Assembly: GCA_030533085.1 (NCBI GenBank)
Contig: JAUNJZ010000001.1
Coordinates: forward strand, 24,814-88,813
Length of the DNA stretch: 64,000 nt
DNA from: Synergistaceae bacterium
Lineage (GTDB): Bacteria > Synergistota > Synergistia > Synergistales > Synergistaceae
Reading direction: 5' to 3'
Position numbers and translations under genes: made by a program. The stretch's first letter is position 1. Each line of letters starts with the position of its first letter. The notes under the pieces were generated by a model that ran no database searches, was not told the DNA's origin, and saw only the letters and a program-made list of their open reading frames with translations. Positions 23,768-45,714 of this stretch are shown one piece after another.

Positions 23768-23895
23768 CTGAAAATTAATTCATTCTGGAGCTTTGCTCTG
23801 TGGTTTTTGACGAATCAGATAATTTGGGCAGTCGGACTGTATGTGGTCTCAGAGCAACGGAGACAGGAAGGCTGTTCTGCGGAGGAGAGTTTATC

Positions 23896-25896: not shown

Positions 25897-25911
25897 ATGG
25901 GGGGCTAAGAA

Positions 25912-27459: not shown

Positions 27460-27479
27460 TCTGCCCACTCCCCCTTGGC

Positions 27480-29093: not shown

Positions 29094-29309
29094 TATTGAC
29101 CGCTCCTTTATTTCACTCTGCCTAACAATCATATTTTCCCAGATCAACGCGCATCAGGCAAGAATTTTTCCCGCCGCTTGCGCGCGCAGTCCATAGCCGC
29201 ACATAATAGAATACCAGCCCGCCGCGAGCAGCTCACGGCAGGCTGGTCAGACAAAGAAGAATAGAGAGAGAGTGAATATCGGCTCCGGCTCCTGCCGCCC
29301 TGCCGAGGA

Positions 29310-30346
29310 GCCGCGTTATTTCCCCCGCTCGTTGTAGAATTCGTCTGCCGCTTCAAAGAAGGCCGTGATGTTCTCCCAGGGCGACATGGCGGGGATGTCG
29401 CAGCCGGAGGAGATGACGAAGTTCGGATACTGGCAGCATTCGCCCATGATTCTCTTTGTTTCGGCCTTCATCGTCTCCGGCGTACCGCTGTAGAAATAGT
29501 CGGAGGGGCTGACATTGCCCATCACCAGCTTGTCTTTCGGCATCAGTTCGAGCATCTCCCTCAGACTTATCGAGTTGCCGAAGTGGAAGGCGGCAGAGCC
29601 GGTGCGCGCTATCGATTCAGTCATCTTAATCGCGCTCCCGCCGCAGTTGTGATAGATCACTATGAAGTTATCGTCCTGCACAGCTTCCACTATCTCGCGC
29701 ACATAGCTCTCGGAGAATTTCACCGCCAGACGCGGAGAGAGAAGCCCGGTAAGCGGCTCCGCCATCACTATGCCGTTCGCGCCGACAGCCTTATAGGCCT
29801 TCGCGTACTCCACAAGGAAATCTGTTGACTTCCTGAGCACGGCCTTCATCATATCGGGCTTTTCTATGCAGTTTACAAGAGCCTCCGCTACGCCGACGAG
29901 ACGTCCGGCGAGCGAGAAGGGGCCTATTACTCCCGCGAATACAGGCCTGTCGGTGATCAGCTCGCAGGCTTTGCCGAGAGCTTCGATATATCTGCCTGTG
30001 CGCGCGGTTCCTACCGGGGGCACAGCCAGAGCCTCTGCCTCCTCGATACTGTTTACGACGGAGCCTACCACAGTGGGCACGTCCTCATCGGAGATATGTA
30101 CCGTAGAGCCGAAAGCCTCAGCTTCAACGGAGAGATCCATCATGCTTACCGATGCCAGGGAATCTATCTTGTCCGCGACCATCTTCATTCCCTTTGCCTG
30201 CAAGCCGCTGTCGCTTATCAGCTCGCGCACGGTTATCCCCATCAGAGTGACGCAGGGGAATGAGAGCACGGGCATCGCCTTTTTGCGCGGAGCGGCCTTG
30301 ATCTCTTCGAGCCAATTGTTCATGTTCATTGGTAACACCTTTCCTT
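29310..30346. repeat. copy A of a 1,037-bp direct repeat (partner at 40313..41349)
   Basis: Co-linear with copy B at a constant offset of 11,003 bp. I saw only about five substitutions. Both-strand ORF translations are identical over hundreds of residues. The repeat spans the stop flank, the CDS and the RBS only. Confidence 0.9.
29316..30329 (-). CDS. uroporphyrinogen-decarboxylase-family methylcobamide methyltransferase (MtaA/MtbA-like MT2), copy 1
   Basis: URO-D-like fold. The candidate Zn site is IVIYHNCGG (H-x-C-G) plus ISSGCDIP. Likely start is MNMNNW (30329), with a GGAAAGG RBS shared by copy 2. Confidence 0.75.
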   Translation of the reverse strand: MNMNNWLEEIKAAPRKKAMPVLSFPCVTLMGITVRELISDSGLQAKGMKMVADKIDSLASVSMMDLSVEAEAFGSTVHISDEDVPTVVGSVVNSIEEAEALAVPPVGTARTGRYIEALGKACELITDRPVFAGVIGPFSLAGRLVGVAEALVNCIEKPDMMKAVLRKSTDFLVEYAKAYKAVGANGIVMAEPLTGLLSPRLAVKFSESYVREIVEAVQDDNFIVIYHNCGGSAIKMTESIARTGSAAFHFGNSISLREMLELMPKDKLVMGNVSPSDYFYSGTPETMKAETKRIMGECCQYPNFVISSGCDIPAMSPWENITAFFEAADEFYNERGK

Positions 30347-30482
30347 TGTTTAAAATATCTTTCATTTGCCCCGTATCACTTTATTAACTGAGAAAAAGCC
30401 TTAAAGGATATAGGACTGATCCTTAATCTAGCTCTTATCTAATTAGACTAGCACTGTCAAATCGATACAGTTTCAGCCATTT

Positions 30483-32879
30483 CTATCCACAGCTGGCGCA
30501 GCTGCCTTCGCGCTGCACCGTGCGCGCGATTATGTCGTCCTGCACTTCCTTGCCAAGCTCTACGAAGAAGGCCGTGTAGCCCGCCACGCGCACGAGCAGG
30601 TTGCGGTATTCTTCCGGGTGCGCCTGCGCCTCAAGAAGCTTTTTCTGATCCACTACGTTGAATTGCACATGGTAGACGCCGAGCGAGCAGAGGGTGCGCA
30701 GCATCGCCATTATCTGGCGTATGCCGTTTTCGCTGTTTGCCATTTGCGGGTCGAGCTTCATGTTGAGCAATGTACCCTGTACGAAGCGGTCGTGCGGAAT
30801 GTTGGCGACTGATTTCAGCACTGCCGTGGGGCCGTTGACGTCTGTCCCGCCGTTTGGGCTGACTCCGTCGGCAAGGGGCTTGCCCGCGCGCCTTCCCGAG
30901 GGCAGAGCGCCGACTTCTACGCCGAAGGGGGTGTTGCCGGAGACCGGCAGGATGCCGGGGGTCATTACTCCGAATTTGCTGCGGTAGCTTTCTATTTCGT
31001 CGGCGATGTAGGCGAAGAGTTCCGCCGCGAGGCTGTCCGCGTATTGGTCGTCGTTGCCGTATTTGGGGGCTTCTTTGCAGGCTTTGAGGATTTCAGGCGC
31101 GTCCTCGAAGTCGGAGGCGAGGGCCGCGAGCAGCTGTTTCATGCTGACGCTTTTTGTGTCGTAGACGAGATGTTTGACTGCGGCTACGCTGTTGATGAGG
31201 TCTGATACGCCGATGCAGATGATCCCGTTGCCGGTGTTGTATTTAGCGCCGCCCCAGGCGTAGTCTTTCGCGTTTTCGATGCATTCCTCAAAGCTGACGG
31301 AGAGGGCGGGGACGGGGCGTCCCATGCATATTTCGTCTATTATGTGGCTGGCTTTGACGACTACTTTGATGACGTAGCGGAGCTGAGCTTTGACTGCGTT
31401 CAGGAAGTCGCCGAATGTCGCGAAGCTGGCGGGGTCGCCTGTCTGCGCTCCGGCAAGCGCGCCGGTTTTGCGGCATTTGCCGTTCAGCAGCACGAATTCC
31501 ATTACGCTGCCGAGGTTTATGTCTGCAAGGGCGGAGTAGGCGCGCAGTTTGCCGGCAAGGTTGGTCTCGACGCAGCCTCCGGGGTTCCAGTCAAGCGCTT
31601 CGCGCAGAGGGATGCCTTTGTTCATCAGCATACGTATGCCCACTTCGTCGTTATGGAAGGCGGGGAAGCCCGTGCCCATTACCATAAGCTCTACTATTTT
31701 GCGCAGGAAGGAGTTTGGATTTTTCGCCATGTTGTAGCGCACCGAGAGCGATGGCTGGTAGAGCTGTGTGTCCATTGTGGCCTGTATTATCATGTAGGAG
31801 AGGTCGTTTACCGCGTCGCGTCCCATTTTGTCCACGCCGCCGGCGCAGAGGTTCTGGAACATCGGGTAGCCGGAGGCATATTCTGCGGATTTGGCGTCCT
31901 GAAAGAGGCACTGTTCGGAGAATTTTACCCAGAGGCAGTCAAAGAGCTCCTGCGCCTCTTCGGGGGTGATGCGTCCGGCTTCCAGGTCGGCCTTGTAGTA
32001 GGGATAGAGATACTGGTCCATGCGTCCGGGGTTGTAGGCGGCGGCGTTTTGTTCCATGAAGATGCTTATCTGGTAGAAGTAGAAGGACTGCATGGCTTCG
32101 CGGAAGCTGCGCGCGGGATATGCCGGAACGCGGCGGCAGACTTGCGCTATCTCAAGCAGCTCCGCTTTGCGGCGCGGCTCTTGCTCCTTTGCGGCAAGAC
32201 GCTCCGCCTCGATGGCGTAACGTTCGGCCAGAGTCTCCAGCCCTTCGCAGACTGTCAGAAGCGCGTCGAGATAGACTTCCTTTTCGTAATCTCCGGGAAC
32301 TGTGGCGTCAAGCTTTGCCTTACGCTCAAGAATTCTCTTGCGCAGCCCCTCGACGCCGTTATTTATGAACCACTCGTAGCCGGCCGTGACCTCGCCCCAG
32401 CCGCGCACTGCCTTCTTGTCGATATAAAGCGCGCCGTTGTCGCGCAGAGCGGCCACATCCGCAGGTATACGCGCGAGCCATTCTTCGTAATTTGAGCGCC
32501 CCTTCCAGTAGGGACGGATCATCTCTTCAAAATCCTTTTTGTCCTCCGGCAGAAGCCTGAACTTGTCATATTCGCGGGTATTGATAGTATCAAGCTCGCG
32601 GTCGAGCACCGACCAGCAGACATCCGCGGAGAGTATACCGCCGCGTATCTTGCTGCCGGAATTTCCTACGATCAGCTCGTCGTCCCATATCTTAACGCTC
32701 TTTTCACGGCACTGCTTCAGAAAAGCCTTGGCCTTGCGCGTGACAAGCGCCTCCCCCTGAGTCTCAAGAAAGCTCTGCGTCAGCAGCTTCGCGTCCTCAA
32801 GGTCTATCTCCGGATATGTCTCAAAGAGCTTCGATTTCAACCTTTCCACTCGTTCCAGATATTTTGGCTGGTTTTCCAT
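30483..32879 (-). CDS. glycyl radical enzyme, PFL2/dehydratase-lyase clade, substrate unknown
   Basis: 798 aa from ATG 32879 (AAGGAGGGG RBS). The glycyl radical motif LLVRVAGYTAFFVELGKEVQDDIIART is near the C-terminus. The Cys loop is WNPGGCVETN. The N-terminal region is typical of CutC/HypD/GDH-type enzymes. Confidence 0.9.
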   Translation of the reverse strand: MENQPKYLERVERLKSKLFETYPEIDLEDAKLLTQSFLETQGEALVTRKAKAFLKQCREKSVKIWDDELIVGNSGSKIRGGILSADVCWSVLDRELDTINTREYDKFRLLPEDKKDFEEMIRPYWKGRSNYEEWLARIPADVAALRDNGALYIDKKAVRGWGEVTAGYEWFINNGVEGLRKRILERKAKLDATVPGDYEKEVYLDALLTVCEGLETLAERYAIEAERLAAKEQEPRRKAELLEIAQVCRRVPAYPARSFREAMQSFYFYQISIFMEQNAAAYNPGRMDQYLYPYYKADLEAGRITPEEAQELFDCLWVKFSEQCLFQDAKSAEYASGYPMFQNLCAGGVDKMGRDAVNDLSYMIIQATMDTQLYQPSLSVRYNMAKNPNSFLRKIVELMVMGTGFPAFHNDEVGIRMLMNKGIPLREALDWNPGGCVETNLAGKLRAYSALADINLGSVMEFVLLNGKCRKTGALAGAQTGDPASFATFGDFLNAVKAQLRYVIKVVVKASHIIDEICMGRPVPALSVSFEECIENAKDYAWGGAKYNTGNGIICIGVSDLINSVAAVKHLVYDTKSVSMKQLLAALASDFEDAPEILKACKEAPKYGNDDQYADSLAAELFAYIADEIESYRSKFGVMTPGILPVSGNTPFGVEVGALPSGRRAGKPLADGVSPNGGTDVNGPTAVLKSVANIPHDRFVQGTLLNMKLDPQMANSENGIRQIMAMLRTLCSLGVYHVQFNVVDQKKLLEAQAHPEEYRNLLVRVAGYTAFFVELGKEVQDDIIARTVQREGSCASCG

Positions 32880-32971
32880 TGTATGCCCCTCCTTTGTAAA
32901 CTGGTTTTGTACCAGAACACGGCGTTTTGCCGTAGAAATCATTTAATCGCAATATCACATAAGATATACAA

Positions 32972-34276
32972 TTACATATTACCTATGACATAGTTTGGAA
33001 GCCATAGCGCCAGCTCTGGAAAGTACGTAACGGCCATTAGCGTAGGGATCCAGGCAAAGAATAAAAATTTCAGTGTGGTCGGGAGCATCTCGGCTACTTT
33101 TACTTTCATCACTCCAGCGCCAAAATAAAGACATGGCGCAGTTGGCGGAGAAAGCAGGCCTATACCGATATTCACGCCGATAATCGCCGCAAAATGTATG
33201 GGGTCAACGCCAAATTCCTGCAAGATCGGGATAAATATCGGCGAGCATAGCAAAATAGCGCTGGTATCGTCCATAATCATACCTATTATCAATAATATTA
33301 TATTCGTTCCCAACAGTATGATATATTTGTTATCTGACAGGTTTTTGAGTGCGCTGGTAATCATTCCAGGCAGATCTTCCATTATGTATATGCGGCTCAA
33401 CATCATGATACAAAAAATCATCACCATGATTACGCCTGTACTTGCCGCTGTTTCTATTAACGTTTCATAGAGGTTTTTAAAAGTAAGCTTTTTATATACG
33501 AAAAAACCTACAGGTATCGTATAAATAACAGCGACAGCCGCAGCTTCGGTAGGTGTGAAAAAGCCGCTGTATATACCACCAAGGACAATGAACGGCATGG
33601 TCAGCGCTGGAACAGCAGACACTGTTCTGTTCTTCGCCATTTCCAGGAACTCAGAATAGCTCATCTTTTCCCTGCTTTTAATATTCTTGTCGTTTCTAAG
33701 AATAAAGTAGCTGGTAACAGAAAGCAGAAACACCAGCAAAAGGCCAGGTCCTACTGTGGCAAGGAAGCATGCCAACAACGACTGCCGTCCCGCCCATGAA
33801 TACAACACCATGTGCGCGCTGGGCGGTATCAATAGCCCAAGCGGAGCCGCACAAGTGACAAGAGCTGCGGCAAAGCCTTTGTCGTATCCGGCCTCCTCAA
33901 ATCTCGGTTTCATGATCGAACCGATACAAGACAAGGTTGCCAGACTGCTGCCGGCAATAGAACCAAACGCGGCGCTGGCAACCACCGCAACTACTGCAAG
34001 GCCGCATTTTATTCTACCCACAAAGATATCAACAAACTCGACAAGAGTTTTTCCAATACCGCTTTGGTTCATTAATGAACCTACCGCGATAAAGAGCGGT
34101 ACGCAAAGCAAGACGAGAGAATTTACAACTCCATAGCCATATGTCAGCAGAAAACTTGTCTTGTATCCCAAAGTAACAACCAGAAACAACGCCGCGGCCA
34201 AAAATGCGTACTGTATATACATCCCAAGCAACAGGCCGGCGATTATCATCAATATAGCAATAAATATGAATGTCAT
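32972..34276 (-). CDS. TRAP transporter large permease (DctM family)
   Basis: 434-aa polytopic membrane protein, directly downstream of the DctQ-like and DctP-like genes. Confidence 0.85.
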   Translation of the reverse strand: MTFIFIAILMIIAGLLLGMYIQYAFLAAALFLVVTLGYKTSFLLTYGYGVVNSLVLLCVPLFIAVGSLMNQSGIGKTLVEFVDIFVGRIKCGLAVVAVVASAAFGSIAGSSLATLSCIGSIMKPRFEEAGYDKGFAAALVTCAAPLGLLIPPSAHMVLYSWAGRQSLLACFLATVGPGLLLVFLLSVTSYFILRNDKNIKSREKMSYSEFLEMAKNRTVSAVPALTMPFIVLGGIYSGFFTPTEAAAVAVIYTIPVGFFVYKKLTFKNLYETLIETAASTGVIMVMIFCIMMLSRIYIMEDLPGMITSALKNLSDNKYIILLGTNIILLIIGMIMDDTSAILLCSPIFIPILQEFGVDPIHFAAIIGVNIGIGLLSPPTAPCLYFGAGVMKVKVAEMLPTTLKFLFFAWIPTLMAVTYFPELALWLPNYVIGNM

Positions 34277-34282
34277 CTGCCG

Positions 34283-34813
34283 TTATCCTTTCCTTGTCAG
34301 TGCAACCAGATGGTTGTAATCTCTAATCGTATAAACGGTTAGATAGAGGGCCGTTATTACGAAAGACAACAAAATCGCAGTCTGAGGAATGAAATATGGA
34401 ATATTCCACAATGATGTTACCGTCCATGTTTCTATTGACCTTGCCACCATATTATATGCCAGTACGACAAAAATAAAGTTTATGGAAGTTTGCAGTATCC
34501 CTGCTGCAAGCTTTGCCACAGCCAACAGCTTTTCCCCCATCATCGTCGCCAGGATATCCGCCTTAATATGTTCTTCCTTACTCATTGCATATGCCGCACC
34601 AATGAAATACATCCAGAAAGAATCAACAAGCACTATCTCGTCATATCCGTATAGATCCGCGTGAAGTACATATCTCGCCAGCACAACCGCTCCCAGTATG
34701 ACCAGCATCAAAACTGTAGTGAGGAACATGATGAATCTCTGTACCTTAAGTAAAGACTTCCAAATTTCAGAGTCCATGATGCTGTTTATAAATTGTATCT
34801 CTCTCACTTTCAA
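34283..34813 (-). CDS. TRAP transporter small permease (DctQ family)
   Basis: 176 aa with four hydrophobic segments. Lies between the DctP and DctM homologs. Start uncertain. Confidence 0.75.
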   Translation of the reverse strand: MKVREIQFINSIMDSEIWKSLLKVQRFIMFLTTVLMLVILGAVVLARYVLHADLYGYDEIVLVDSFWMYFIGAAYAMSKEEHIKADILATMMGEKLLAVAKLAAGILQTSINFIFVVLAYNMVARSIETWTVTSLWNIPYFIPQTAILLSFVITALYLTVYTIRDYNHLVALTRKG

Positions 34814-34893
34814 TTCACTCCCTTCGCTTTTTTACATAAGGGCATGCCATACAAGCATGCCCTTATGTATCAACGTAATTGTGCTTACAGTTT

Positions 34894-35922
34894 TTACTTT
34901 CCCGGTTTCGTAGCCGCGACCTGTTTGTCAAGAGCTTCAAGGAATTCTTTTCCAAACACGTCGTTGTATTTCGGCCATATCTTTTTACGAAGCTCACTAT
35001 GTAGTTTATAATAATCGTCGTCGGTATATTCGTTAATCTCTATGCCATAATCCTTAAGCAGCCTTGTAAACTCCACTTCTTTTTCTTCCATCAGGGTAAG
35101 AGTTTTCTGCGCCCAGCTTTTGAAAACATCGGAAACAATCTGCTGTTCCTCTGGAGAGAACGAGGCCCAAAGCTCCTCATTACAGATTATCCACGTAGGT
35201 GGGCAGTGAAATCTATTGTAGTCGATATATTTTATGATATCCTTGCCGACAAGCCATGACGTTTCAAGCGTTTGTCCGGTAGCGCCGTCCACCTGACCTG
35301 TCTGCATCGCGTTCCAAACCTCTGACAGATCCATTGTCAGCGTCTGATATCCCATCGCAACAGTGCTGTCTCTGTAGAGTGGCATTCCTGGAACACGGAG
35401 GCTCAGCTTTTTATTTTCAAAACCACTGAAGGATTCAGGGCGTTTTCCTTTCGCGAAAACAAAGCAAGCGTACGGTTCCGGCCAACCGCCGATACTTTTG
35501 ACCTTTATATCTTTTAAGACTTCGTCCATCTTTTTTGCAATCAGCGAGTCTTCTGCAAAACAGATCTCCGCATACTGTTTATACCCCATAGGAGCGTATG
35601 CCGGAAGATTGAGCAAGTCCAAACGAGGGTCATATTTCTTTGTGGGCCATGTCGCGCCGAACTCAATAGTACCCTGTCTGACTTCTTCAATCACATCTTC
35701 GTAACTTCCAAGCTGGCCGCCAGGAAAAATTTTTATCGAGATTTTGCCGTCTGTCTCATTTTTTATCTGCTCTGCGGCAGAAACCAATCCCTGTGTAATA
35801 TAACTTTCAGCAACGTACGGAGCATACATCTTCAACGTTCTAGCTTCAGCAACCCCGCTAGCAACAAACAGACCAAATAACGCACAAATAGATATTATTT
35901 TTACAAAACTTTGCTTTTTCAT
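34894..35922 (-). CDS. TRAP transporter substrate-binding protein (DctP family)
   Basis: 342 aa. Signal peptide MKKQSFVKIISICALFGLFVASGVAEA, with a DctP-like periplasmic-binding-protein body. Confidence 0.8.
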   Translation of the reverse strand: MKKQSFVKIISICALFGLFVASGVAEARTLKMYAPYVAESYITQGLVSAAEQIKNETDGKISIKIFPGGQLGSYEDVIEEVRQGTIEFGATWPTKKYDPRLDLLNLPAYAPMGYKQYAEICFAEDSLIAKKMDEVLKDIKVKSIGGWPEPYACFVFAKGKRPESFSGFENKKLSLRVPGMPLYRDSTVAMGYQTLTMDLSEVWNAMQTGQVDGATGQTLETSWLVGKDIIKYIDYNRFHCPPTWIICNEELWASFSPEEQQIVSDVFKSWAQKTLTLMEEKEVEFTRLLKDYGIEINEYTDDDYYKLHSELRKKIWPKYNDVFGKEFLEALDKQVAATKPGK

Positions 35923-36072
35923 AATACACTCCCCCTATTCAGAAATAACCAGCACACAAAAACCGACGAAATCATACTAATACGCACATACCACACAAAA
36001 AGGAGCAAATTAATTAAATTTAAGGGAAAACTGACTTTTTTGCTTCCGACAAGACCGCACACGTCGTGCCGG

Positions 36073-36714
36073 TTACGCAACCCTTAAAAGTCTTTTCGCA
36101 GCTTCAACTGCTGAGCTCGCGTCCTCCGAATAAACCGCGCCTATTTTTTCGGCATACATGGGCGAAGTAGGCGCTCCTCCAATCATTACCTTTGTTGAAT
36201 CACTGAGTCCTTCCTCTTTGAGTACGTCGATTACCTCCTTCATTTTTGCCATCGTTGTGGTAAGCATTGCCGACATCCCCAATATGTCAGGTGAATACTC
36301 TTTCACCTTTTCAGCAATCTGGGCAGCCTGAACATCAATGCCTATGTTAATAACCTCAAAACCCGCGCCTTCCAGCATCATCCCCACAAGCTTTATGCCG
36401 ATGTCATGCAGATCGCCCTCGACAGTTACCGTTAGGATTCTGCCTTTTCTCTCAACTCCTTCCTCTACCAGTAGATTGCGGATGACGTCGATGCCGCCCT
36501 GCAACGCTTTCGCAGACACTAGAACCTCCGGGACAAACATTTCCCCATCCTTGAAAAGCTCTCCAACTTCATTCATCCCAACGATCAAGCCGTCATTAAG
36601 AATTTTCCCCGCGGATACGCCTCCCTCCACAGCTTCCTGAACATATGCAGTTGTCTGTTTCACATTGCCCTCTAGAACCGCTTCAGCAATATTCCTAAGT
36701 ATTTCTTCACTCAT
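36073..36714 (-). CDS. corrinoid (cobalamin-binding) protein 1, MtbC/MttC/MtgC-like
   Basis: B12-binding DxHxxG motif in TVEGDLHDIGIKLVGMMLEGAGFEVINIG, plus SAMLTTTM and MIGGAP. Confidence 0.9.
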   Translation of the reverse strand: MSEEILRNIAEAVLEGNVKQTTAYVQEAVEGGVSAGKILNDGLIVGMNEVGELFKDGEMFVPEVLVSAKALQGGIDVIRNLLVEEGVERKGRILTVTVEGDLHDIGIKLVGMMLEGAGFEVINIGIDVQAAQIAEKVKEYSPDILGMSAMLTTTMAKMKEVIDVLKEEGLSDSTKVMIGGAPTSPMYAEKIGAVYSEDASSAVEAAKRLLRVA

Positions 36715-36746
36715 TTTCCAGTCTCTCCTTTTAATTTACTATATGG

Positions 36747-38270
36747 CTAGTTTCTTATTATCTTTTCCATCGCTGATTCCGCATCAACGGGAACGTCAAT
36801 CGGTTTATATTTGGCCATCAGCTTATTTTTCTTAGCGATTGCGTTGTTAATCACATTCGTATCCAGATGTTTCTTTTCGCCTTTGACTGCGGAGCAATCA
36901 AAGATCGTACGGGTCCACAACTCTTTTCTAAAATGTGTGAGCGTATGGTCCGTACTGATAAAATCACCGCGCGGTCCCACTCTGTTGATGAGGTCAAAGC
37001 CTTCGGAAGACATATCGACAGTGATTCCGTCTTTTATCCTTTTAACATAATTTGCGACTTCCGAAGCGAGGATAAGAGTTTCGGCGCTGACGGCGTTCAT
37101 CCCTGCCAGAAGCCCCATCCCCTGAGCCATATTTATTCCGCTGAGAGCCGGTAAAAGGCTTGTTGCACACTGTTCTGCCCCGAGCTGATGATCCAGGGCT
37201 AAAGAGTCAGAGAGATTAGAGCCGCCGCCAGTCGGAAGGTTGTAGTGTTTCCCCATTTGCGTAGTCGCAATACGAAGCATACTAAACTCCGGCCCTCCGA
37301 CGCTGACATTTCCGTTTTTCATATTAATCACTCGCGCCCAGCTGGCGTAAATTACAGGTGCGGAAGACTTTACAAGCTTTGCCAGAACGATACTGCTTAA
37401 AAGTTCAGCGTTTGCTATTGCAACGGTTTCAGCAAGGGTTACTGGAGATGTTGCCCCGGCCATCGGCCCCGACTCGACAAAGAGCGGGATTCCATATCTT
37501 GCCGATTCAATAATAAGCTGCATAGAATCGCTGCGGTGATGGAGCGGACTTGTCAGTGTAACAAGAAATGAAAAAAACGGTGTTTTTTTAAGATTTTCCT
37601 CTCCGCCGGCGATATATTCCGCCATCTTTATTATCTTTCGCGCGTTGACAAGATCCTTGGCCTGGGCTTCGATATGCTTCGACGTATAAAGCATGCCGGC
37701 TTTGAATTCATATAAATCAGCGTATTCAGGCTCAACGTCTGTTGCTCCTACGCTGGGCAGGATATAATCAGGCGGATCGAGGATATCGCAGAGTTTCATG
37801 ACATCAATAACATCCTTGCTTGTAGACTGACGGTATTCACCGCTTTCGAAATCAAGATAGTTTGTGGCGAATCCTGTAGTTCCAAAATACAGGTTGTCAC
37901 CGCCTACATGGAGACTCCGGCGACCGCAGCGCCCATGAAGCTCCACCACTGGAATAGAGGCTTCTATTGCCTCATTGATAATTTTTTCTGTAAGAAAAAC
38001 TCTTGTTTTTCCATCAATTCTTGCTCCGGCATCTGCAAAGATTGAAATAGCCTCTTCATCCTCGCAAATAAAACCAACCTTTTCCAGAACATCCCGCGAT
38101 AATCTGTCAATATACCGGATCTCTTCGTTGCTCAAAATCTTAATGTCAGGCTTCAACGATACCAGCTCCTTATGTAAGTAATGTTGCAATGAAAAATTTG
38201 TATTATATATAGCCTTGCAATGAAACGTTTTCTTTATTCTATCAAAACTTTTATCCTTGTCAATATGCAT
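36747..38270 (-). CDS. MttB-superfamily methyltransferase 1 (no in-frame amber codon, so non-pyrrolysine)
   Basis: 507-aa uninterrupted ORF. The N-terminal pattern LSNEEIRYIDRLSRDVLEKVGF and overall length are typical of trimethylamine-methyltransferase-family proteins. Adjacent to a corrinoid protein. Confidence 0.85.
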   Translation of the reverse strand: MHIDKDKSFDRIKKTFHCKAIYNTNFSLQHYLHKELVSLKPDIKILSNEEIRYIDRLSRDVLEKVGFICEDEEAISIFADAGARIDGKTRVFLTEKIINEAIEASIPVVELHGRCGRRSLHVGGDNLYFGTTGFATNYLDFESGEYRQSTSKDVIDVMKLCDILDPPDYILPSVGATDVEPEYADLYEFKAGMLYTSKHIEAQAKDLVNARKIIKMAEYIAGGEENLKKTPFFSFLVTLTSPLHHRSDSMQLIIESARYGIPLFVESGPMAGATSPVTLAETVAIANAELLSSIVLAKLVKSSAPVIYASWARVINMKNGNVSVGGPEFSMLRIATTQMGKHYNLPTGGGSNLSDSLALDHQLGAEQCATSLLPALSGINMAQGMGLLAGMNAVSAETLILASEVANYVKRIKDGITVDMSSEGFDLINRVGPRGDFISTDHTLTHFRKELWTRTIFDCSAVKGEKKHLDTNVINNAIAKKNKLMAKYKPIDVPVDAESAMEKIIRN

Positions 38271-38549
38271 AGCGTGATTCCGTAAAGAACAATGCGCTTT
38301 TTTAAATTTGCTACATTATTGTATTAAAATTTACTCTTTAATATAAAAAATCTTTGAAGAAGGCGGTGTTTGATTTGTAATCTAAATGCAATATAATAAA
38401 AAAGATAAAAACTCAGAAAATTAGCTTTCATAAAAATATAGTTTGCGACAACAAGGTAGCGCAAGGAATGTCATTCTGCGCCAGAAAACGGGGGGAGATC
38501 TTACACTGTCGGGGCAGTCATTGGGTAGGACAGTTCATTGATTATGGAA

Positions 38550-38572
38550 GGCGGCGGAAGGAATCCGCCGCC
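38550..38572 (-). terminator. hairpin downstream of the RpiR-family gene
   Basis: GGCGGCGGA-aggaa-TCCGCCGCC, a perfect 9-bp GC stem about 95 nt after the stop. The T-run is weak. Confidence 0.4.
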
Positions 38573-38666
38573 TCTTGATGGAACTTTCCACACAGTCTAA
38601 GTAGCCCTCCATGGATCCACATGGTATAACCGCCTGTTTAGCCGGTAATCTGACTCCGACAAAAGA

Positions 38667-39542
38667 TCAATCAAGTTTTAAAGTAAAATCATAGTCTTTA
38701 AACTCAAACATATCAGATGAAACAATCAATGATTCATATTTTTTTAACCGCTGTTTGATATTTGTTTTGTCTTTTTTATACATCTCGATGAGCATTGCAT
38801 GTACCAAAGTAAGAGCAGACGAGGCCGGCTCGACAAATAATATATATTTTAGCGGCGTTATCAGATTCTGAGATGCATATTTCAATATTGGAGAAGCATG
38901 ACTGTCCGTTACGGCCAAAATAGGTATATTTAAATTATATAATGTCTCTGCTATCTTCAGAACTTCTTTAGGATATCTGGGATAACTGAATACTACCGCT
39001 ACAGTTTTATTGCTCAACAACTCCAGTTTTCCATAAAATCTCATATTCCTTTGATGAACGACACTGACTTTCTCCTTAAAAAAGCTAAGATAATCAGCAA
39101 AGTATTCTGTAATGTAATGTTGCGTCGGTCCGCCAACTAAAACTATATTATCCGCTTCCATCAACGTTTCAACAAACCTGTCAAAATCGGCGGGATCGAT
39201 TGACGCCAAAGACTCATCCAATAGATTTTTTTCTAACATGAATATGTCCTGATATGTAGGGAAATCAGAGCCACACGGCACAATCTGCCTGAACGGATCA
39301 TATTGGTTTGGTTTTTGCACCTGTTTTCTAAGATCCAACTGGAAATCAGAAAAACTATTATAGCCAATCGCATAAACAAAGCGGGTTAGCGTTGCTTCGC
39401 TCACACCTACGTTTTTAGCAATCTTGGAGGCATTCATCAAAGCGACATCATATATATGTTCGCATATATATTCTCCAATAGCGACCTGTTTGTTTGTGAG
39501 ATTGGGCGTTGCCTGCATAATTTTTTCGTTGATTGTTGCCAT
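38667..39542 (-). CDS. MurR/RpiR-family transcriptional regulator (HTH_6 + SIS domain)
   Basis: N-terminal HTH: LTNKQVAIGEYICEHIYDVALMNASKIAKNVGVSEATLTRFVYAIGYNSFSDFQ. C-terminal SIS-like region: NIVLVGGPTQH. Confidence 0.85.
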   Translation of the reverse strand: MATINEKIMQATPNLTNKQVAIGEYICEHIYDVALMNASKIAKNVGVSEATLTRFVYAIGYNSFSDFQLDLRKQVQKPNQYDPFRQIVPCGSDFPTYQDIFMLEKNLLDESLASIDPADFDRFVETLMEADNIVLVGGPTQHYITEYFADYLSFFKEKVSVVHQRNMRFYGKLELLSNKTVAVVFSYPRYPKEVLKIAETLYNLNIPILAVTDSHASPILKYASQNLITPLKYILFVEPASSALTLVHAMLIEMYKKDKTNIKQRLKKYESLIVSSDMFEFKDYDFTLKLD

Positions 39543-40242
39543 AAGAATCCCCTCACTGTAGACGCTGAAATCAGTTCTGGATTCAGGCTGGTATTTCCCG
39601 GCCCGATCCGCCTCACATAATTAACCAGACAGTCTGTATATTAAATCAACATCAGCAAAACCGCCAATGTTTTATCCAGGTTTCTCCTGCATAAAAATAT
39701 GCGCTGAACGGGTATATACAACAAGCCGCTCCGCGCATATACAAATCCATGCTTACGAAGATAGACCGTCGCCCCATGCCCATCGCATTAGCTAACTGCC
39801 GCGTTTTCGCGAGGTCTTCTGGCTTTTGGCCGTTCCCTGGCGTCTGCCTTCCCATCATGAGTCATAAACGACAGTGGCTGATGCGACCCAGCGTGCAGAA
39901 TATCTACCATATTCCACATGACCAATTACAGTAGCGAGGCTGCTTCGGACTTTCACCGATATTGTCTCACTTCAAAAACGCTAACTAAACAAAGACAAAA
40001 AACATCTCTGTCTTAAATTACGGTATCACATTTCTATAAAAAACGCAATATAGGAAATATTATTAACAGATTTACAATTTAAATGCAGCATGGCGTGCCT
40101 TTTCTCCGCACGCTGTTCTTTCGATCTGCATATTATTTGGGTGAAAGCACTGATATACAGTTGCTTCACTGTTTATCTCCGTAAATGGCAATCAACACTG
40201 CCGCCGCTCTGAATCACGATACAGACTGTGCTTTTGCAACAA

Positions 40243-40279
40243 CCATAGAGAACCGCAATCTTTGAACGGTTCTCTATGG
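40243..40279 (-). terminator. hairpin downstream of MT2 copy 2
   Basis: Perfect 13-bp inverted repeat CCATAGAGAACCG-(11 nt)-CGGTTCTCTATGG, about 40 nt after the stop at 40319. On the minus strand it is followed by TTGTTG. Confidence 0.5.
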
Positions 40280-40312
40280 CAAATGCCAACTTTACTCTGT
40301 CAAATTGCCAGC

Positions 40313-41349
40313 GCCGCGTTATTTCCCCTGCTCGTTGTAGAATTCGTCTGCCGCTTCAAAGAAGGCCATGATGTTCTCCCAGGGCGACATGGCGGGTATG
40401 TCGCAGCCGGAGGAGATGACGAAGTTCGGATACTGGCAGCATTCGCCCATGATTCTCTTTGTTTCGGCCTTCATCGTCTCCGGCGTACCGCTGTAGAAAT
40501 AGTCGGAGGGGCTGACATTGCCCATCACCAGCTTGTCTTTCGGCATCAGTTCGAGCATCTCCCTCAGACTTATCGAGTTGCCGAAGTGGAAGGCGGCAGA
40601 GCCGGTGCGCGCTATCGATTCAGTCATCTTAATCGCGCTCCCGCCGCAGTTGTGATAGATCACTATGAAGTTATCGTCCTGCACAGCTTCCACTATCTCG
40701 CGCACATAGCTCTCGGAGAATTTCACCGCCAGACGCGGAGAGAGAAGCCCGGTAAGCGGCTCCGCCATCACTATGCCGTTCGCGCCGACAGCCTTATAGG
40801 CCTTCGCGTACTCCACAAGGAAATCTGTTGACTTCCTGAGCACGGCCTTCATCATATCGGGCTTTTCTATGCAGTTTACAAGAGCCTCCGCTACGCCGAC
40901 GAGACGTCCGGCGAGCGAGAAGGGGCCTATTACTCCCGCGAATACAGGCCTGTCGGTGATCAGCTCGCAGGCTTTGCCGAGAGCTTCGATATATCTGCCT
41001 GTGCGCGCGGTTCCTACCGGGGGCACAGCCAGAGCCTCTGCCTCCTCGATACTGTTTACGACGGAGCCTACCACAGTGGGCACGTCCTCATCGGAGATAT
41101 GTACCGTAGAGCCGAAAGCCTCAGCTTCAACGGAGAGATCCATCATGCTTACCGATGCCAGGGAATCTATCTTGTCCGCGACCATCTTCATTCCCTTTGC
41201 CTGCAAGCCGCTGTCGCTTATCAGCTCGCGCACGGTTATCCCCATCAGAGTGACGCAGGGGAATGAGAGCACGGGCATCGCCTTTTTACGCGGAGCGGCC
41301 TTGATCTCTTCGAGCCAGTTGTTCATGTTCATTGGTAACACCTTTCCTT
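40313..41349. repeat. copy B of the 1,037-bp direct repeat (partner at 29310..30346)
   Basis: See copy A. The two proteins differ at two residues near the C-terminus (T/M and R/Q). Confidence 0.9.
40319..41332 (-). CDS. uroporphyrinogen-decarboxylase-family methylcobamide methyltransferase (MtaA/MtbA-like MT2), copy 2
   Basis: Identical to copy 1 except ENIMAFF...NEQGK versus ENITAFF...NERGK. Confidence 0.75.
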   Translation of the reverse strand: MNMNNWLEEIKAAPRKKAMPVLSFPCVTLMGITVRELISDSGLQAKGMKMVADKIDSLASVSMMDLSVEAEAFGSTVHISDEDVPTVVGSVVNSIEEAEALAVPPVGTARTGRYIEALGKACELITDRPVFAGVIGPFSLAGRLVGVAEALVNCIEKPDMMKAVLRKSTDFLVEYAKAYKAVGANGIVMAEPLTGLLSPRLAVKFSESYVREIVEAVQDDNFIVIYHNCGGSAIKMTESIARTGSAAFHFGNSISLREMLELMPKDKLVMGNVSPSDYFYSGTPETMKAETKRIMGECCQYPNFVISSGCDIPAMSPWENIMAFFEAADEFYNEQGK

Positions 41350-41477
41350 ATATTGGATTTGAATTGTAAATTTACTCTGTTTTCGTGCCGTTGCTACGGG
41401 AATGATAGCATAATGAAATAATCTTTTCAAGATATTCTTTTTATGAAAATTATGCAATCATAACCTTGAAATCTGTT

Positions 41478-43004
41478 TTATTGAGAATCCCCGCCGCTTT
41501 TCTTCCCTCTCATTTCCTCGCTCATCGCCTTCACGAGCGCCCACGCCATGAAGATGGTCATTATTGAATATGGGAAGGATATGACCCCCGCCAGCTTCTG
41601 GATACCGCGGAAATCGCCGGCAAAGAGCGTGATGGCGGAGATGACGGCCATCATTCCCCAGATGAAAAGCCTTCTCTTCGTTGTAGGGTTGATATCTCCG
41701 TTGCTTGAGAGCATTCCGACAACAAAGGTGCCTGAGTTTGCCGAGGTTACGAGGAAGGTCGCCACCAGTATGAAGCATACGATGGTCGTGATCGAGGAGA
41801 GCGGGAACATCGCCATAAGATCCCAGAGCGCCATTGACATGTTATTGACAGAGGAGTCCGCCAGGGCGCAGGTCGGATTTTTCATTACAGCGGAGATGGC
41901 CGTGCTTCCGAAAATCGTCATCCAGGCAAAGCTTCCGAGAGGAGGAATGATAAGCGACCCCATTACAAGCTCTCTCATGCTTCTTCCGTAGGATACGCGG
42001 GCGAAGAATACGCCGCAGAACGGCCCCCATGAAAGCCACCAGAGCCAGTAAAGCACAGTCCAGCCGCGCTGCCAGACGTCGAAATCCGGATCCCACGGGC
42101 TGACGCGCAGCGTCCAGTCCGGCAGATTCGCGACATAGGCGCCGAGAGACGTTACAAATGTCTGCAATATGCCGAGCGTTGGGCCAAAGAGGAAGAGGAA
42201 GCCGCAGATCAGTATCGACAGATAGACGTTGATATCCGCTATGACCTTTATTCCCTTTTTCAGCCCCGCGACCGCCGTTATAATATATACGACGGACATC
42301 AGCCCCAGCGAAATCTCCGCAAACCATATGCTGTTGGGGATGTTGAAAAAACGCGCGATCCCGGCGCCCATCTGTGAGGAGGCGATTCCCAGAGAAGAGG
42401 CTATTCCGGCCACAGTCACGAATACCATCCATGAATCCACAAAATGCGAGCAGTGCAGCGCAACCCTTTCATTCTTGAAGAGCGGCTCGACAAAGTTGCC
42501 CAGAAGCACGGGCCTGTTCTTCCTCATGCTGAAGTAGCCTATAACCATTGCTGTAATGCCGTAAATTCCCCACGGATGCACTCCCCAGTGCAGGAAGCTC
42601 AGCTGCATTGAGAGATCCGCCGCCTGCGGCGAGAAGGTGGCGATCCCGGGAGGAGGAGCTATAAAATGATATGCAGGCTCCGCCGCTCCGAAGAAGACGA
42701 GCCCGCTGCCCATGCCGGCGGAAAAGAGCATCGCCAGCCATGAAAAGGTGCTGAATTCCGGCTCTGAATCATCCGGGCCGAGTTTGATTTTGCCATACTT
42801 GGAGCAGGCAATATATATCATGAACAGTATATAAAATGTGAGCACCGAGACAAGATACCAGTTGAAATACTGGCAGATCCAGTCGAAAATTGCCGTCATG
42901 GTGCTTCCGAAAAGCTCGTTGTGGACAAGACCGAATACTATCAGTATAAGAGTAAGCCCTACTGAGCCGTAAAATACTGTATTATCATTTTCCTTTTGGC
43001 GCAT
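41478..43004 (-). CDS. BCCT-family (betaine/carnitine/choline) transporter
   Basis: 508 aa with 12 hydrophobic segments. The family signature region is WTVLYWLWWLSWGPFCGVFFARVSYGRSMRELV. Confidence 0.9.
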   Translation of the reverse strand: MRQKENDNTVFYGSVGLTLILIVFGLVHNELFGSTMTAIFDWICQYFNWYLVSVLTFYILFMIYIACSKYGKIKLGPDDSEPEFSTFSWLAMLFSAGMGSGLVFFGAAEPAYHFIAPPPGIATFSPQAADLSMQLSFLHWGVHPWGIYGITAMVIGYFSMRKNRPVLLGNFVEPLFKNERVALHCSHFVDSWMVFVTVAGIASSLGIASSQMGAGIARFFNIPNSIWFAEISLGLMSVVYIITAVAGLKKGIKVIADINVYLSILICGFLFLFGPTLGILQTFVTSLGAYVANLPDWTLRVSPWDPDFDVWQRGWTVLYWLWWLSWGPFCGVFFARVSYGRSMRELVMGSLIIPPLGSFAWMTIFGSTAISAVMKNPTCALADSSVNNMSMALWDLMAMFPLSSITTIVCFILVATFLVTSANSGTFVVGMLSSNGDINPTTKRRLFIWGMMAVISAITLFAGDFRGIQKLAGVISFPYSIMTIFMAWALVKAMSEEMRGKKSGGDSQ

Positions 43005-43050
43005 CCCCCAAACACCCCTCCTAAATAAATTTTGTTAAAATACTGCGAAC

Positions 43051-43103
43051 GAAAAAATCACGGGCGGCATTTCCCGCGCCCATCATGGAATGCCGCCGCC
43101 CGT
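43051..43103 (-). terminator. strong intra-operon hairpin with T-run between MttB-2 and the BCCT gene (terminator or attenuator)
   Basis: On the minus strand: ACGGGCGGCGGCATTC-(13 nt)-GGAAATGCCGCCCGT, followed by GATTTTTTCG. Confidence 0.55.
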
Positions 43104-43116
43104 AAAGCTTCAGCTC

Positions 43117-44613
43117 TTACTTTTCGAGCCAGATCTTGCCTGCGTCCGGAAGGATCTCCGGGAAGGCGGCTCTGATTTCCTTTTCGACCTCCGGGTCGAT
43201 AGGATCAGGTTTGTGATTCATGAGAATATCCATCGTCAGCTTTCTTGCCTTTTCGTTATAGACGGGCCTGCCGGCCAGATCCCACGACGCGAAGGTCTTT
43301 CTGTCCGCGAGCTTTGGATAGAAGAATTCGGACCGCGCATATTTTGTGGTCATCGGATGGTCGAGGAAGACCCCGCCTATGCCTATCTCTTTGAATACAT
43401 CGAGCGCAAGCCGCTCTTCGTCGATCTCTATCCCCTGAAGTACGCGCTTTGCCATCCCCAACACTTCGTTCGCGACGACGAAATTCTCCAGACAGAGTGT
43501 AAGACCGCCCTCTATGAGGCCAAAGGAGCCGTGCATGTTATTGGCGCCTGACATCGCGCCGAGCACAAGACCCATTCCAAGCTCTATGCCGAGCTGCGTA
43601 TCCATCACCTTTGAATCGCACATGCCGCAGATGGAATAATTCGGGATGTCGTACCACTGACTAAGCTGATTGATGGCGCAGTTCTGCATCCAGCCTTCGA
43701 CAGAGGCGAAGCAGAAGGAGCCGTCCCTGTGGTCCACCGTCATCGGAACGGCGGAATAGAAGCAGGGATGACCGGCTTTTTTGAGCTGAACGGTGATAAC
43801 TGTCATAAGCGCCTCGACGTTGCTCAATACAAGCTGTGCCGCAAGCGTGCCGGGGCAGGTCGTCCCCACGGTCGACGCTGTGGGAGAGGCGATCGGGAAG
43901 CCGTGATCTATTCCCAGCAGGAGAGTCTTCGTCCATGACTCGTCCATTATAAAGGGGCTGATGACGCCGCATACGAGCGTTATGAAGGGGCGCTCTCTGA
44001 AGGCGTCCTCCTTGCCCAGTATCATATTCGCCATCTTATAGATTTTCGGCACGCTCTCCGGGCGGTATGGGCCGGTGCAGATATGCTTGGAGCTGTTTTT
44101 CATCATGATAAAGTATCTGTTAAGGTCAGGAGCGCCCTTGCTGAGCTCGCTCGGGAAACAGCAGCTCTGAAGCAGGTCGGCGTTTTCCAGAGCGTCGCAG
44201 AGCCTGATACCGGCCGCGAGGTCGTAAATATTCGGGGCGCGGTGCTCTCCCGTCTCAAAATCCCATACTCCAACAGCCTCGCAGGATGGGCCGCCGTAAA
44301 AGCGATAAGGCCCCTGCTGGATATTGTTCTTTTCCACGCGGCCATACTGCGTAAATTCTCCCGGCGCGCGCCTGATGCATTCCTCTACGATATCGCGGTC
44401 TATTTTACATATTCCTGTTTCGTCGTCGACGATTGCGCCGGCCTTCTTCCAATACTCCCGTGCCGGAGCGTACTTTATACAGACGCCGATCTCCTTGAAA
44501 ATCTTCATGGAGGCCTCGTGTATCATCTGCATCTGCTCCTCCGTCAACGGCCGGTAGAGCTTTCCCTCATATACCTTTTTTTCAGTTTCTCTGCTTCTGC
44601 GTGATCTTGCCAT
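43117..44613 (-). CDS. MttB-superfamily methyltransferase 2 (non-pyrrolysine)
   Basis: About 498-aa uninterrupted ORF. LTEEQMQMIHEASMKIFKEIGV is an MttB-like N-terminus. GGGAGGG RBS before ATG 44613. Strongly diverged from MttB-1. Confidence 0.85.
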   Translation of the reverse strand: MARSRRSRETEKKVYEGKLYRPLTEEQMQMIHEASMKIFKEIGVCIKYAPAREYWKKAGAIVDDETGICKIDRDIVEECIRRAPGEFTQYGRVEKNNIQQGPYRFYGGPSCEAVGVWDFETGEHRAPNIYDLAAGIRLCDALENADLLQSCCFPSELSKGAPDLNRYFIMMKNSSKHICTGPYRPESVPKIYKMANMILGKEDAFRERPFITLVCGVISPFIMDESWTKTLLLGIDHGFPIASPTASTVGTTCPGTLAAQLVLSNVEALMTVITVQLKKAGHPCFYSAVPMTVDHRDGSFCFASVEGWMQNCAINQLSQWYDIPNYSICGMCDSKVMDTQLGIELGMGLVLGAMSGANNMHGSFGLIEGGLTLCLENFVVANEVLGMAKRVLQGIEIDEERLALDVFKEIGIGGVFLDHPMTTKYARSEFFYPKLADRKTFASWDLAGRPVYNEKARKLTMDILMNHKPDPIDPEVEKEIRAAFPEILPDAGKIWLEK

Positions 44614-44672
44614 AATATTCCCTCCCGCTCGTAACAATCAAAAATCCATCTCCACAGCCGCGAAGCGAAAAG

Positions 44673-45314
44673 CTACGCTACCCCCGCCAGCTCCTTCGCC
44701 ACGCTCACACATTCGTTGGCATCGGCCGTATAACGCGCGCCGATCTTTTCTCCGAAGGTCGGCGACGTCGGCGCTCCGCCTATCATCACGTGGAGCTTGT
44801 CATACAGCCCTTCCTCTTTCAGGATATCGACGACCTCTTTCATATTCGCCATCGTCGTCGTCAACATAGCCGACATACCCAGAATCATCGGGTCAAGCTC
44901 TTTTATCTTCGCCACGATCTCGCCGGCCGGCTTGTCAACGCCTATATAGATGACCTCGAAGCCAGCCCCCTCCAACATCAGGCCGCAGAGCTTTATGCCG
45001 ATATCATGCAGGTCGCCCTCGACCGTTACTGTCATAATGCGTCCGATCGATTTGATATCGTCGGCCAGCAGAAGCGGCTTGATGACCTCTATCCCCGACT
45101 GAAGAGCCTTGGAGGCGACCAGCACCTCTGGAACGAACATCTCTCCCTCTTTGAAAAGAACTCCGACCTCGCTCATCCCCGCGATAAGGGCATTGTTCAG
45201 TATCTCTCCGGCCGCTATCCCCTCGTCGGCCGCCTGGCGGACCAGAGAGGCGACGCCCGCGCTATCCCCATCCATGATAGACTCCATAATTTCCTCAAAC
45301 AGCTTTTCCTTCAT
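44673..45314 (-). CDS. corrinoid (cobalamin-binding) protein 2
   Basis: TVEGDLHDIGIKLCGLMLEGAGFEVIYIG (DxHxxG). Highly similar to corrinoid protein 1 along its whole length. Start at Met21 of the ORF-track protein. Confidence 0.9.
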   Translation of the reverse strand: MKEKLFEEIMESIMDGDSAGVASLVRQAADEGIAAGEILNNALIAGMSEVGVLFKEGEMFVPEVLVASKALQSGIEVIKPLLLADDIKSIGRIMTVTVEGDLHDIGIKLCGLMLEGAGFEVIYIGVDKPAGEIVAKIKELDPMILGMSAMLTTTMANMKEVVDILKEEGLYDKLHVMIGGAPTSPTFGEKIGARYTADANECVSVAKELAGVA

Positions 45315-45629
45315 CCCGCATTCCCCCTGTATGGTATTTTGTCGTTCGTCAGGTAAAATTGCCGCACAATACAACAGCAGACATCTTTTCGCGATAAATG
45401 TCCAATAAAATATTCTCCCGCTCTTTACCCCGCCGGCCCTCAGATATAAGCTGAATTTACAAAACCGTCCGTTTTAAAGAGCTTAATATTACGCCTTGCA
45501 ACTTTACTTTGATTCACTATAAGAAGTGTACACTTTTGTCCATGTTAATGTCTATTGAGAAAATCGTGAAAGGGATTGTGCAAAATCGTTAAAAGCAGCT
45601 GCTGAAGAATTGGAAATAATATCTCACAA

Positions 45630-45661
45630 GGAGGCGGAAGCGCCTGACAGCGCCGCCCTCC
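45630..45661 (-). terminator. hairpin downstream of the histidine kinase gene
   Basis: GGAGGCGG...CCGCCCTCC, an imperfect GC-rich inverted repeat about 55 nt after the stop at 45715. Confidence 0.35.
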
Positions 45662-45714
45662 TGAAACAATCGCCTTTGCTATATCCGTATGGACTTTGTT
45701 TAAGCGGCGCTTTC

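Follow-up and report, generated by a model that had tools for sequence, protein, structure and literature searches.

Two near-identical copies of a short MT2 gene bracket an 11-kb methyltransferase unit that is missing from a sister strain

We analyzed a 64,000-nucleotide (nt) stretch of a gut-type Synergistaceae bacterium (contig JAUNJZ010000001.1, positions 24,814 to 88,813), hereafter the window, whose own numbering gives all coordinates below. Its minus strand carries two copies, MT2-A and MT2-B, of a gene for a putative short MtaA-like methyltransferase (MT2), together with two MttB-type systems. In systems of this family, MttB-type enzymes methylate their own corrinoid proteins from quaternary amines, a second methyltransferase passes the methyl group on, and RACo repairs the oxidized cofactor. 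Read along the minus strand, the locus begins with corrinoid protein 2, MttB-2, a BCCT transporter, and MT2-B, followed by a 776-nt gap that holds a cobalamin riboswitch. It continues with an RpiR regulator, MttB-1, corrinoid protein 1, the TRAP transporter genes DctP, DctQ, and DctM, a glycyl radical enzyme (GRE), and MT2-A. After MT2-A come a strong terminator-like hairpin, a RACo-type corrinoid activase, and a 263-amino-acid (aa) open reading frame (ORF). Performing Pfam and NCBIfam searches, we obtained matches for seven of the eight ORFs of the unit made up of one MT2 and the genes between the copies (MT2, GRE, DctP, corrinoid protein, MttB, RpiR, and, as a precomputed Pfam call, DctM); DctQ was assigned by a precomputed Pfam call and collinearity. 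The labels GRE, TRAP, corrinoid protein, MttB, and RpiR had been given in an earlier reading of this DNA (the original prediction), and all of them proved right.

The two copies are 1,037-nt direct repeats, 99.5% identical, that lie at an offset of 11,003 nt. The original prediction had described two nearly identical gene copies in direct orientation, with a constant offset, no indels, and about five substitutions. Ungapped comparison and a repeat finder both recovered the pair, and the exact alignment counted no indels and exactly five mismatches in the 1,037 nt, the identity as first read (copy-A coordinates 30315, 30285, 29394, 29365, and 29326). No further long repeat involves the pair. 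Three of the differences are synonymous (nt 15, 45, and 936 of the coding sequence, CDS), and two are the non-synonymous changes that had been noticed near the 3′ end: T322M (nt 965) and R335Q (nt 1004), at positions that are both variable across 122 homologs. With three synonymous and two non-synonymous differences, a dN/dS ratio would not be meaningful. A match of this length and identity cannot have arisen by chance.

The repeat is gene-sized, as had been proposed. It starts 17 nt before the ATG, with the GGAAAGG ribosome-binding site included, and stops 6 nt past the TAA. Beyond both edges, the identity between the copies drops abruptly to random (roughly 3-8 matches per 20 nt), and gapped blastn of the 1-kb flanks of A against those of B revealed no extra homology. 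The other paralog pairs of the two systems are far more diverged, with 61% aa identity between the corrinoid proteins and 26% between the MttB proteins. Thus, the MT2 pair is an outlier among the paralogs.

For conspecific comparison we used Logan contigs only. The 90% cluster of MT2 has just three members, namely A, B, and one Logan protein. This third member lies on L001, a Logan contig of 3,927 nt (SRR24915838), in the order BCCT 3′ end, spacer, one MT2, RACo, and 263-aa ORF, and the 11-kb unit is missing. The contig aligns to window positions 41627-40313 at 98.3% and to 30346-26698 at 98.7%, the two segments being joined through a single MT2. Judged by its sequence, L001 is exactly what a crossover between A and B would produce or start from, that is, the recombined or empty-site form. 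The proposal that the direct repeats may mediate deletion or amplification of the block had pointed to related strains as the place to find such a form, and the single-copy arrangement with the same outer flanks is what L001 holds. A second two-copy genome was found neither in the three-member cluster nor with a codon-degenerate 47-nt MT2 pattern, which gave 0 hits against JGI metagenomes. A scan of genome contigs returned no conspecific genome, its best match being an 80% identical protein in an unrelated context of a Synergistetes metagenome-assembled genome, and exact-protein look-ups of MT2-A, MT2-B, and GRE gave no match.

We compared both copies with the allele of L001. Copy A differs from it at 18 sites and copy B at 17, of which 15 are common to both. 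Therefore, A and B either coalesce after the split of the strains or were homogenized since. The five A/B differences are all confined to the outer 62 nt at the 5′ end and the outer 85 nt at the 3′ end, and the 890-nt core between them is identical. Under uniform placement, such end clustering has P = 1.2e-4 and such a run free of differences has P = 2.6e-4. End-clustered differences are a signature of recombination or conversion; random mutation after a fresh duplication fits poorly. The original prediction of a very recent duplication or ongoing gene conversion is supported by the 15 common substitutions and by the confinement of the differences to the ends.

The five sites also show an orientation. 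At the two 5′ sites the base of L001 is found in copy A, at the three 3′ sites in copy B. In other words, at all five sites, the flank-side end of a copy differs from L001 and the cargo-side end matches it (one-sided P = 0.03). From the BCCT flank through the 5′ end of B, the core, and the 3′ end of A to the RACo flank, the differences from L001 have an even spread. A composite of the outer ends differs from L001 at 20 sites in the 1,037 nt of the gene, versus 36 in 2,890 nt of the flanks. The outer composite looks like the native allele of this strain; the cargo-side ends resemble either a second allele or ends that were shielded from recombination with strains of the single-copy type. The pattern fits a recent common ancestry of the copies that was shaped by homologous recombination or gene conversion. 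Two histories would fit. In one, a resident MT2 and a cargo-linked MT2 recombined in a single crossover, and one conversion tract came later. In the other, the target was duplicated in one step, and recombination then imported sequence through the flanks.

Taken together, we consider it likely that the two copies of the short MtaA-like MT2 bound an 11,003-nt strain-specific unit and that this state interconverts with the single-copy state by homologous recombination. The ancestral state would be Cor2–MttB2–BCCT and then the MT2–RACo pair, the arrangement seen in the sister strain. The cargo, with an MT2 copy attached, may have entered via a single crossover within MT2 (Campbell-type); alternatively, one illegitimate step may have duplicated the target gene. 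Gene conversion would afterwards have held the 890-nt core identical, and the reverse crossover would regenerate the single-copy form. RecA-type recombination within MT2 would thus switch between the states, with the block as an accessory unit that has no recombinase of its own. As a result, each of the two quaternary-amine demethylation operons would now end with its own MT2, which would move the methyl group from the methylated corrinoid protein to a further acceptor, and the single RACo downstream of copy A would reactivate the oxidized corrinoid for both systems.

Related species raise the possibility of an older origin. Their orthologous BCCT modules (L092-L094; BCCT 88-89%, MttB 92-93%, corrinoid protein 79-80% identical) carry a 459-aa URO-D gene after BCCT, followed by a hydantoinase gene, and the island-type module of L091 ends with a 455-aa URO-D gene. 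The copies could be old paralogs homogenized by gene conversion, with the cargo having brought its own short MT2 or the duplication being old, in which case the near-identity of the copies would be uninformative on the age of the duplication. In the relatives, such modules do have an MT2-type gene last, the differences do sit only at the two ends around the identical core, and A and B resemble each other more than either resembles the sister allele, as expected under concerted evolution. Nevertheless, we regard this origin as unlikely. The MT2-type gene of the relatives is the long URO-D, whose 455-aa and 459-aa products share 80% identity but have only 27-31% with the MT2 of the window, which makes it unfit as a conversion substrate. 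Moreover, the identity of the copies is cut off sharply and does not fade out into the flanks, the outermost 31 nt at one repeat end and 16 nt at the other are identical as well, and the sister strain shows a clean single-copy site.

We give slightly less credence to the linear two-copy layout being an assembly choice, behind which would stand a single-copy chromosome plus an 11,003-nt circle or tandem array, or a mixture of strains. All these arrangements have the same four junctions, short reads cannot phase the 5′ and 3′ differences over the identical core of 890 nt, the outer alleles make up a natural haplotype that runs on into the flanks, and the single-copy form is demonstrably present in the population. 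Against an assembly choice stands that the unit encodes no replication or partition genes, so that a free circle could not persist at assembly-level abundance, and that the deposited 155,892-nt contig passes through both copies. A second Logan contig, L095 (SRR24915808), is 100% identical to window positions 40359-32811 and confirms the junction on the MT2-B/riboswitch side with a different assembler. Its first 31-mer (40359-40329) ends on the B-specific base 40329, and the preceding 31-mer is the same in A and B. Logan builds its contigs at k=31, and every 31-mer is unique within an accession (PMC12424806). The break of L095 at this branch 31-mer, taken with that uniqueness, means that both 3′ alleles were in the reads; unlike L095, L001 runs unbranched through its MT2. 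Consistent with two copies, intact MT2-A and MT2-B proteins are recorded from NCBI only, and their neighbors except GRE are recorded from Logan as well. Even under an assembly choice, two MT2 contexts would exist in the population, and hence the repeat would be real.

That MT2 is a mobile gene cassette, or the unit an integron cassette, transposon, or integrative element whose ends are the repeat boundaries, is very improbable: the boundaries do hug the gene (-17 and +6 nt) and short-MT2 homologs do occur in varied Synergistaceae contexts, but Pfam and NCBIfam found no transposase, integrase, recombinase, or replication gene among the ORFs of the unit or its neighboring genes, there are no terminal inverted repeats (the repeat finder detected no inverted repeats of at least 40 nt) and no tRNA (none in a search of the window), the unit has no plasmid similarity, and its spacers have no homologs in any fetched locus.

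Several points weigh against interconversion by recombination between the copies. The asymmetry between outer and inner alleles comprises five sites only, at a one-sided P of 0.03, and the linkage of A and B across the identical core comes from the deposited assembly. L001 is a short-read k=31 contig, from which a low-abundance two-copy variant could have been pruned, and with one outgroup allele a gain of the unit here and its loss in the sister strain fit alike. Interconversion also does not account for the first joining of a tightly bounded MT2 copy (-17/+6 nt) to the GRE side. Lastly, the function of MT2 and its acceptor are deduced from membership in a family whose NCBIfam curated cut-offs it does not reach.

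Table 1. Positions of the repeat copies, the cargo, the resident genes, and the long URO-D genes of relatives. Positions refer to the window unless a Logan or relative locus is named; GC3, GC content at third codon positions.
Feature	Position	Strand	Description
Repeat copy A	29310..30346	-	MT2-A CDS, ribosome-binding site, and 6 nt past the stop
MT2-A CDS	29316-30329	-	337 aa
Repeat copy B	40313..41349	-	MT2-B CDS; 5 nt unlike copy A
MT2-B CDS	40319-41332	-	337 aa
Cargo	30347..40312	-	9,966 nt; with one repeat, the 11,003-nt unit missing from L001
Glycyl radical enzyme (GRE)	30483..32879	-	798 aa; RVAGY glycyl motif and GCVE cysteine motif kept
TRAP transporter	32972..35922	-	DctM 32972-34276, DctQ 34283-34807, DctP 34894-35922; GC3 0.46-0.49
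Corrinoid protein 1	36073..36714	-	213 aa; Pfam B12-binding, B12-binding_2
MttB-1	36747..38270	-	PF06253
RpiR-family regulator	38667..39542	-	Pfam; lowest GC in the block, 0.37
Cobalamin riboswitch aptamer	39791..40009	-	Rfam RF00174, 41.8 bits vs gathering score 31.5
Resident module 2, upstream of MT2-B	41478..45314	-	Corrinoid protein 2, MttB-2, BCCT
Corrinoid protein 2	44673-45314	-	B12-binding protein
MttB-2	43117-44613	-	PF06253
BCCT transporter	41478-43004	-	Best NCBIfam match, glycine-betaine BCCT model
Promoter-like site, BCCT/MT2-B spacer	41402..41430	-	TTGAAA-17-TATCAT, TG upstream; consensus match only
Terminator-like hairpin, downstream of MT2-A	29213-29247	-	Predicted
RACo/RamA-type corrinoid reductive activase, downstream of MT2-A	27480-29093	-	Pfam; same order in L001
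Long URO-D genes of relatives	L091:6951-8318; L092:4470-5849; L093:11560-12939		455-459 aa

The cargo is a composite of a low-GC foreign RpiR–MttB–corrinoid–TRAP module and a GRE of native composition. The six genes from DctM to RpiR have GC3 values of 0.37-0.49, compared with 0.65-0.75 for native genes of the window, 0.72 for GRE, and 0.71 for both MT2 copies. Accordingly, a compositional island spans 32972-40312 (GC 37-48% versus about 57% around it), sharply delimited by the 92-nt spacer between DctM and GRE on one side and by the edge of repeat copy B on the other. No relatives with at least 90% identity to GRE, MttB-1, corrinoid protein 1, DctP, DctM, or RpiR were present in a collection of 15 billion proteins, which, together with the low GC3 of the island genes, marks the cargo as foreign. 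A plasmid origin of the island was considered and found unsupported, as it has no similarity to plasmids. The low-GC block is collinear with the RpiR–MttB–Cor–DctPQM modules of L091 (Logan) and L088 (Synergistes jonesii), and local alignments to L091 show about 72-97% aa identity. MttB-1 has its nearest relatives there (L091, 86%; S. jonesii, 78%). Its homologs are 469-470 aa long, which suggests a true start near 38159.

GRE is 91% identical to a Cloacibacillus GRE and 86% to that of S. jonesii. In Cloacibacillus, the ortholog belongs to an activase–GRE–GRE–activase operon (L007), and the nucleotide homology of the window's gene to L007 runs from the start codon to ~25 nt before the stop codon, i.e., over the CDS only. 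No activase gene adjoins the GRE of the window, which stands as an intact orphan wedged between the foreign TRAP transporter and MT2-A. When the junction spacers (GRE/MT2-A, DctM/GRE, MT2-B/RpiR, and others) were compared with all fetched loci, no remnants of an activase or a long URO-D and no homologs were detected. An EamA gene adjoins both the 80% MT2 homolog and the Cloacibacillus GRE operon, and we therefore considered a shared EamA-side ancestral neighborhood of GRE and MT2; this was rejected, as the window's EamA has no significant similarity to either EamA. The ORF at 6130-8628, tried as a second GRE with an activase, is a leucyl-tRNA synthetase by Pfam.

The riboswitch at 39791-40009 stands between MT2-B and RpiR, with a weak terminator-like hairpin at 39671-39648. 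A B12 “off” switch ahead of a B12-dependent methyltransferase module is odd, and no riboswitch was present in the related RpiR–MttB–TRAP modules L088, L089, and L091. It may be a leftover of another operon. The original description of the intervening block was thus right in its genes; it had not mentioned the composite make-up, the riboswitch, or the lack of an activase for GRE. A second and stronger cobalamin riboswitch (61728-61954, minus strand, 65.3 bits) is found upstream of the gene for a TonB-dependent receptor (59613-61616), which is an ordinary BtuB-type arrangement.

MttB-1 and MttB-2 are uninterrupted ORFs with no in-frame TAG, both match PF06253, and each stands beside a B12-binding protein; by these features, they are predicted to be non-pyrrolysine methyltransferases of the MttB superfamily. 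MttB-2 belongs to a 90% cluster that includes S. jonesii. Hints on substrates come only from the transporters, BCCT in module 2 and TRAP in module 1. The promoter-like site in the BCCT/MT2-B spacer falls just outside the repeat and is kept in L001. MT2-A probably relies on read-through from the MttB-1 operon. Two ORFs farther along, 26692-27483 (minus strand, 263 aa) and 25912-26625 (plus strand, 237 aa), have no Pfam or NCBIfam match; the former follows RACo in both the window and L001, and the latter follows a hydantoinase-like gene in both the window and L092-L094.

The original prediction that each MttB system has its own copy of one MT2 was correct, and the comparison adds that relatives end both module types with a long URO-D. 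Both module types of this species thus have the same short MT2 in the position that the long gene takes in relatives. The long URO-D proteins have an extra C-terminal part of ~120 aa with a C-x-x-C motif and no Pfam match, and there is no such gene in the window. The relatives keep one order on one strand (L093: response regulator–histidine kinase–Cor–MttB–BCCT–URO-D–hydantoinase–233-aa protein). In the window, the hydantoinase-like and 237-aa genes (23800-26625; 54% and 50% identical) oppose the block with Cor2–MttB2–BCCT (41478-47593), and MT2, RACo, and the 263-aa ORF sit between the two. The opposed orientation and the interposed genes indicate that the locus was rearranged more than once.

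The MT2 protein matches the Pfam family URO-D, PF01208 (E = 5.7e-49; 167 bits against a gathering score of 23.9). Its best NCBIfam matches are the methylcobalamin:coenzyme M methyltransferase and MtaA/CmuA models, all well under their curated cut-offs (TIGR01463, 124.6 vs 235.4 bits; MtaA, 111.6 vs 400; MtbA, 98.2 vs 600). Hence, it was not assigned as MtaA or MtbA. The top relative of solved structure is MtaA, PDB 4AY7 (E = 6e-17), and the zinc ligands HxC...C are kept, YHNCGG and SSGCDI aligning with LHICGN and APGCGI of 4AY7. The short MT2 family occurs mostly in Clostridia (at most 72% identity), where it often stands beside a corrinoid protein and RACo. Within the Synergistaceae, short-MT2 homologs are found in varied contexts, and the closest are 79-80% identical in unrelated contexts.

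Compared with the methylcobamide:coenzyme M methyltransferases MtaA and MtbA, the MT2 of the window is alike in its predicted URO-D fold, with 4AY7 as the best structure match and aligned HxC...C ligands. It differs in scoring far under the NCBIfam cut-offs for MtaA, MtbA, and the MtaA/CmuA subfamily and in having Clostridia proteins, at 72% identity or less, as nearest relatives. Coenzyme M is not expected in a bacterial host. The glycine betaine system MtgB/MtgC/MtgA of Desulfitobacterium hafniense, reportedly described by Ticak et al. in 2014, likewise combines a non-pyrrolysine MttB homolog with its cognate corrinoid protein, an MT2, and a transporter of the betaine family; on the side of the window, module 2 has the BCCT transporter, best matched in NCBIfam by the glycine-betaine BCCT model.

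A close parallel in function is found in the quaternary-amine:THF methyltransferase systems of Eubacterium limosum, in which one MtqA, encoded beside RamQ, serves three MttB enzymes (PMC8604678). There, as predicted here, pyrrolysine-free MT1s of the MttB superfamily (MtpB, MtcB, and MtyB) methylate a corrinoid protein (MtqC), one common MT2 demethylates corrinoid protein for several MT1s, and the adjacency of mtqA and ramQ (PMC8604678) resembles that of MT2 and RACo in the window and L001. In contrast, E. limosum has a single MT2 gene in a separate cluster; in the window, a duplication in cis places an MT2 at the end of each operon, and the two systems have separate corrinoid proteins. A 2026 paper queried MtqA along with MtvA, AcsE, MetH, and bacterial MtaA for a phylogeny of MTII (CdmA) (PMC13222342), and this query set suggests that MtqA is of a different fold family from the URO-D-type MT2 of the window.

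The window has two further features of note. Two paralogous pairs of a histidine kinase and a LuxR-type response regulator (45715-47593 and 52393-54205), each near a LysR gene, show patches of 73-83% nucleotide identity at a constant offset of 6,582 nt (repeat families D3 and D4). The ORF for glycine/sarcosine/betaine reductase GrdB (11398-12444, plus strand) ends at an in-frame TGA (...LTST*GTCTRCG...), beyond which the frame stays open for ~87 codons, to about 12705. The TGA probably encodes selenocysteine. The reductase is relevant to the MttB systems in that it could take up the products of betaine demethylation.

With regard to recombination, the locus is a clean example of a known process and no new kind of system. 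Like other cases of RecA-dependent deletion, amplification, or Campbell-type integration (between rrn operons, insertion sequence copies, or duplicated genes), it has kilobase-scale direct repeats and a segment that is present in one strain and precisely absent from another, where one repeat copy is left. Unlike those, the repeat is one metabolic gene with its ribosome-binding site, not an insertion sequence or rRNA operon, and this gene has a function related to that of the bracketed cargo. We note as a speculative and rather improbable extension that the 11-kb unit is a recombinase-free “plug-in” that moves between conspecific strains as a circularized fragment and integrates at MT2. It would fit the allele pattern, the outer ends being the recipient haplotype and the inner ends a second allele, and it would also fit the parallel replacement of the long URO-D by the short MT2 in both modules. 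If so, any strain with MT2–RACo could gain a module of MT1, corrinoid protein, and transporter that is pre-wired to a common MT2.

Whichever way the unit first arrived, recombination between the MT2 copies, the reading we favor, makes the two strains a natural before/after pair in which the junctions are base-exact and both states are sampled. An assembler is likely to mis-join or collapse the 1,037-nt repeat, where the copy number may also vary. The pair shows a horizontally acquired substrate-specific demethylase module joined to an existing back end of corrinoid methyl transfer. For quaternary-amine metabolism in the gut, to which the MttB superfamily and the precursors of trimethylamine belong, this suggests that MT2 is swappable between systems.

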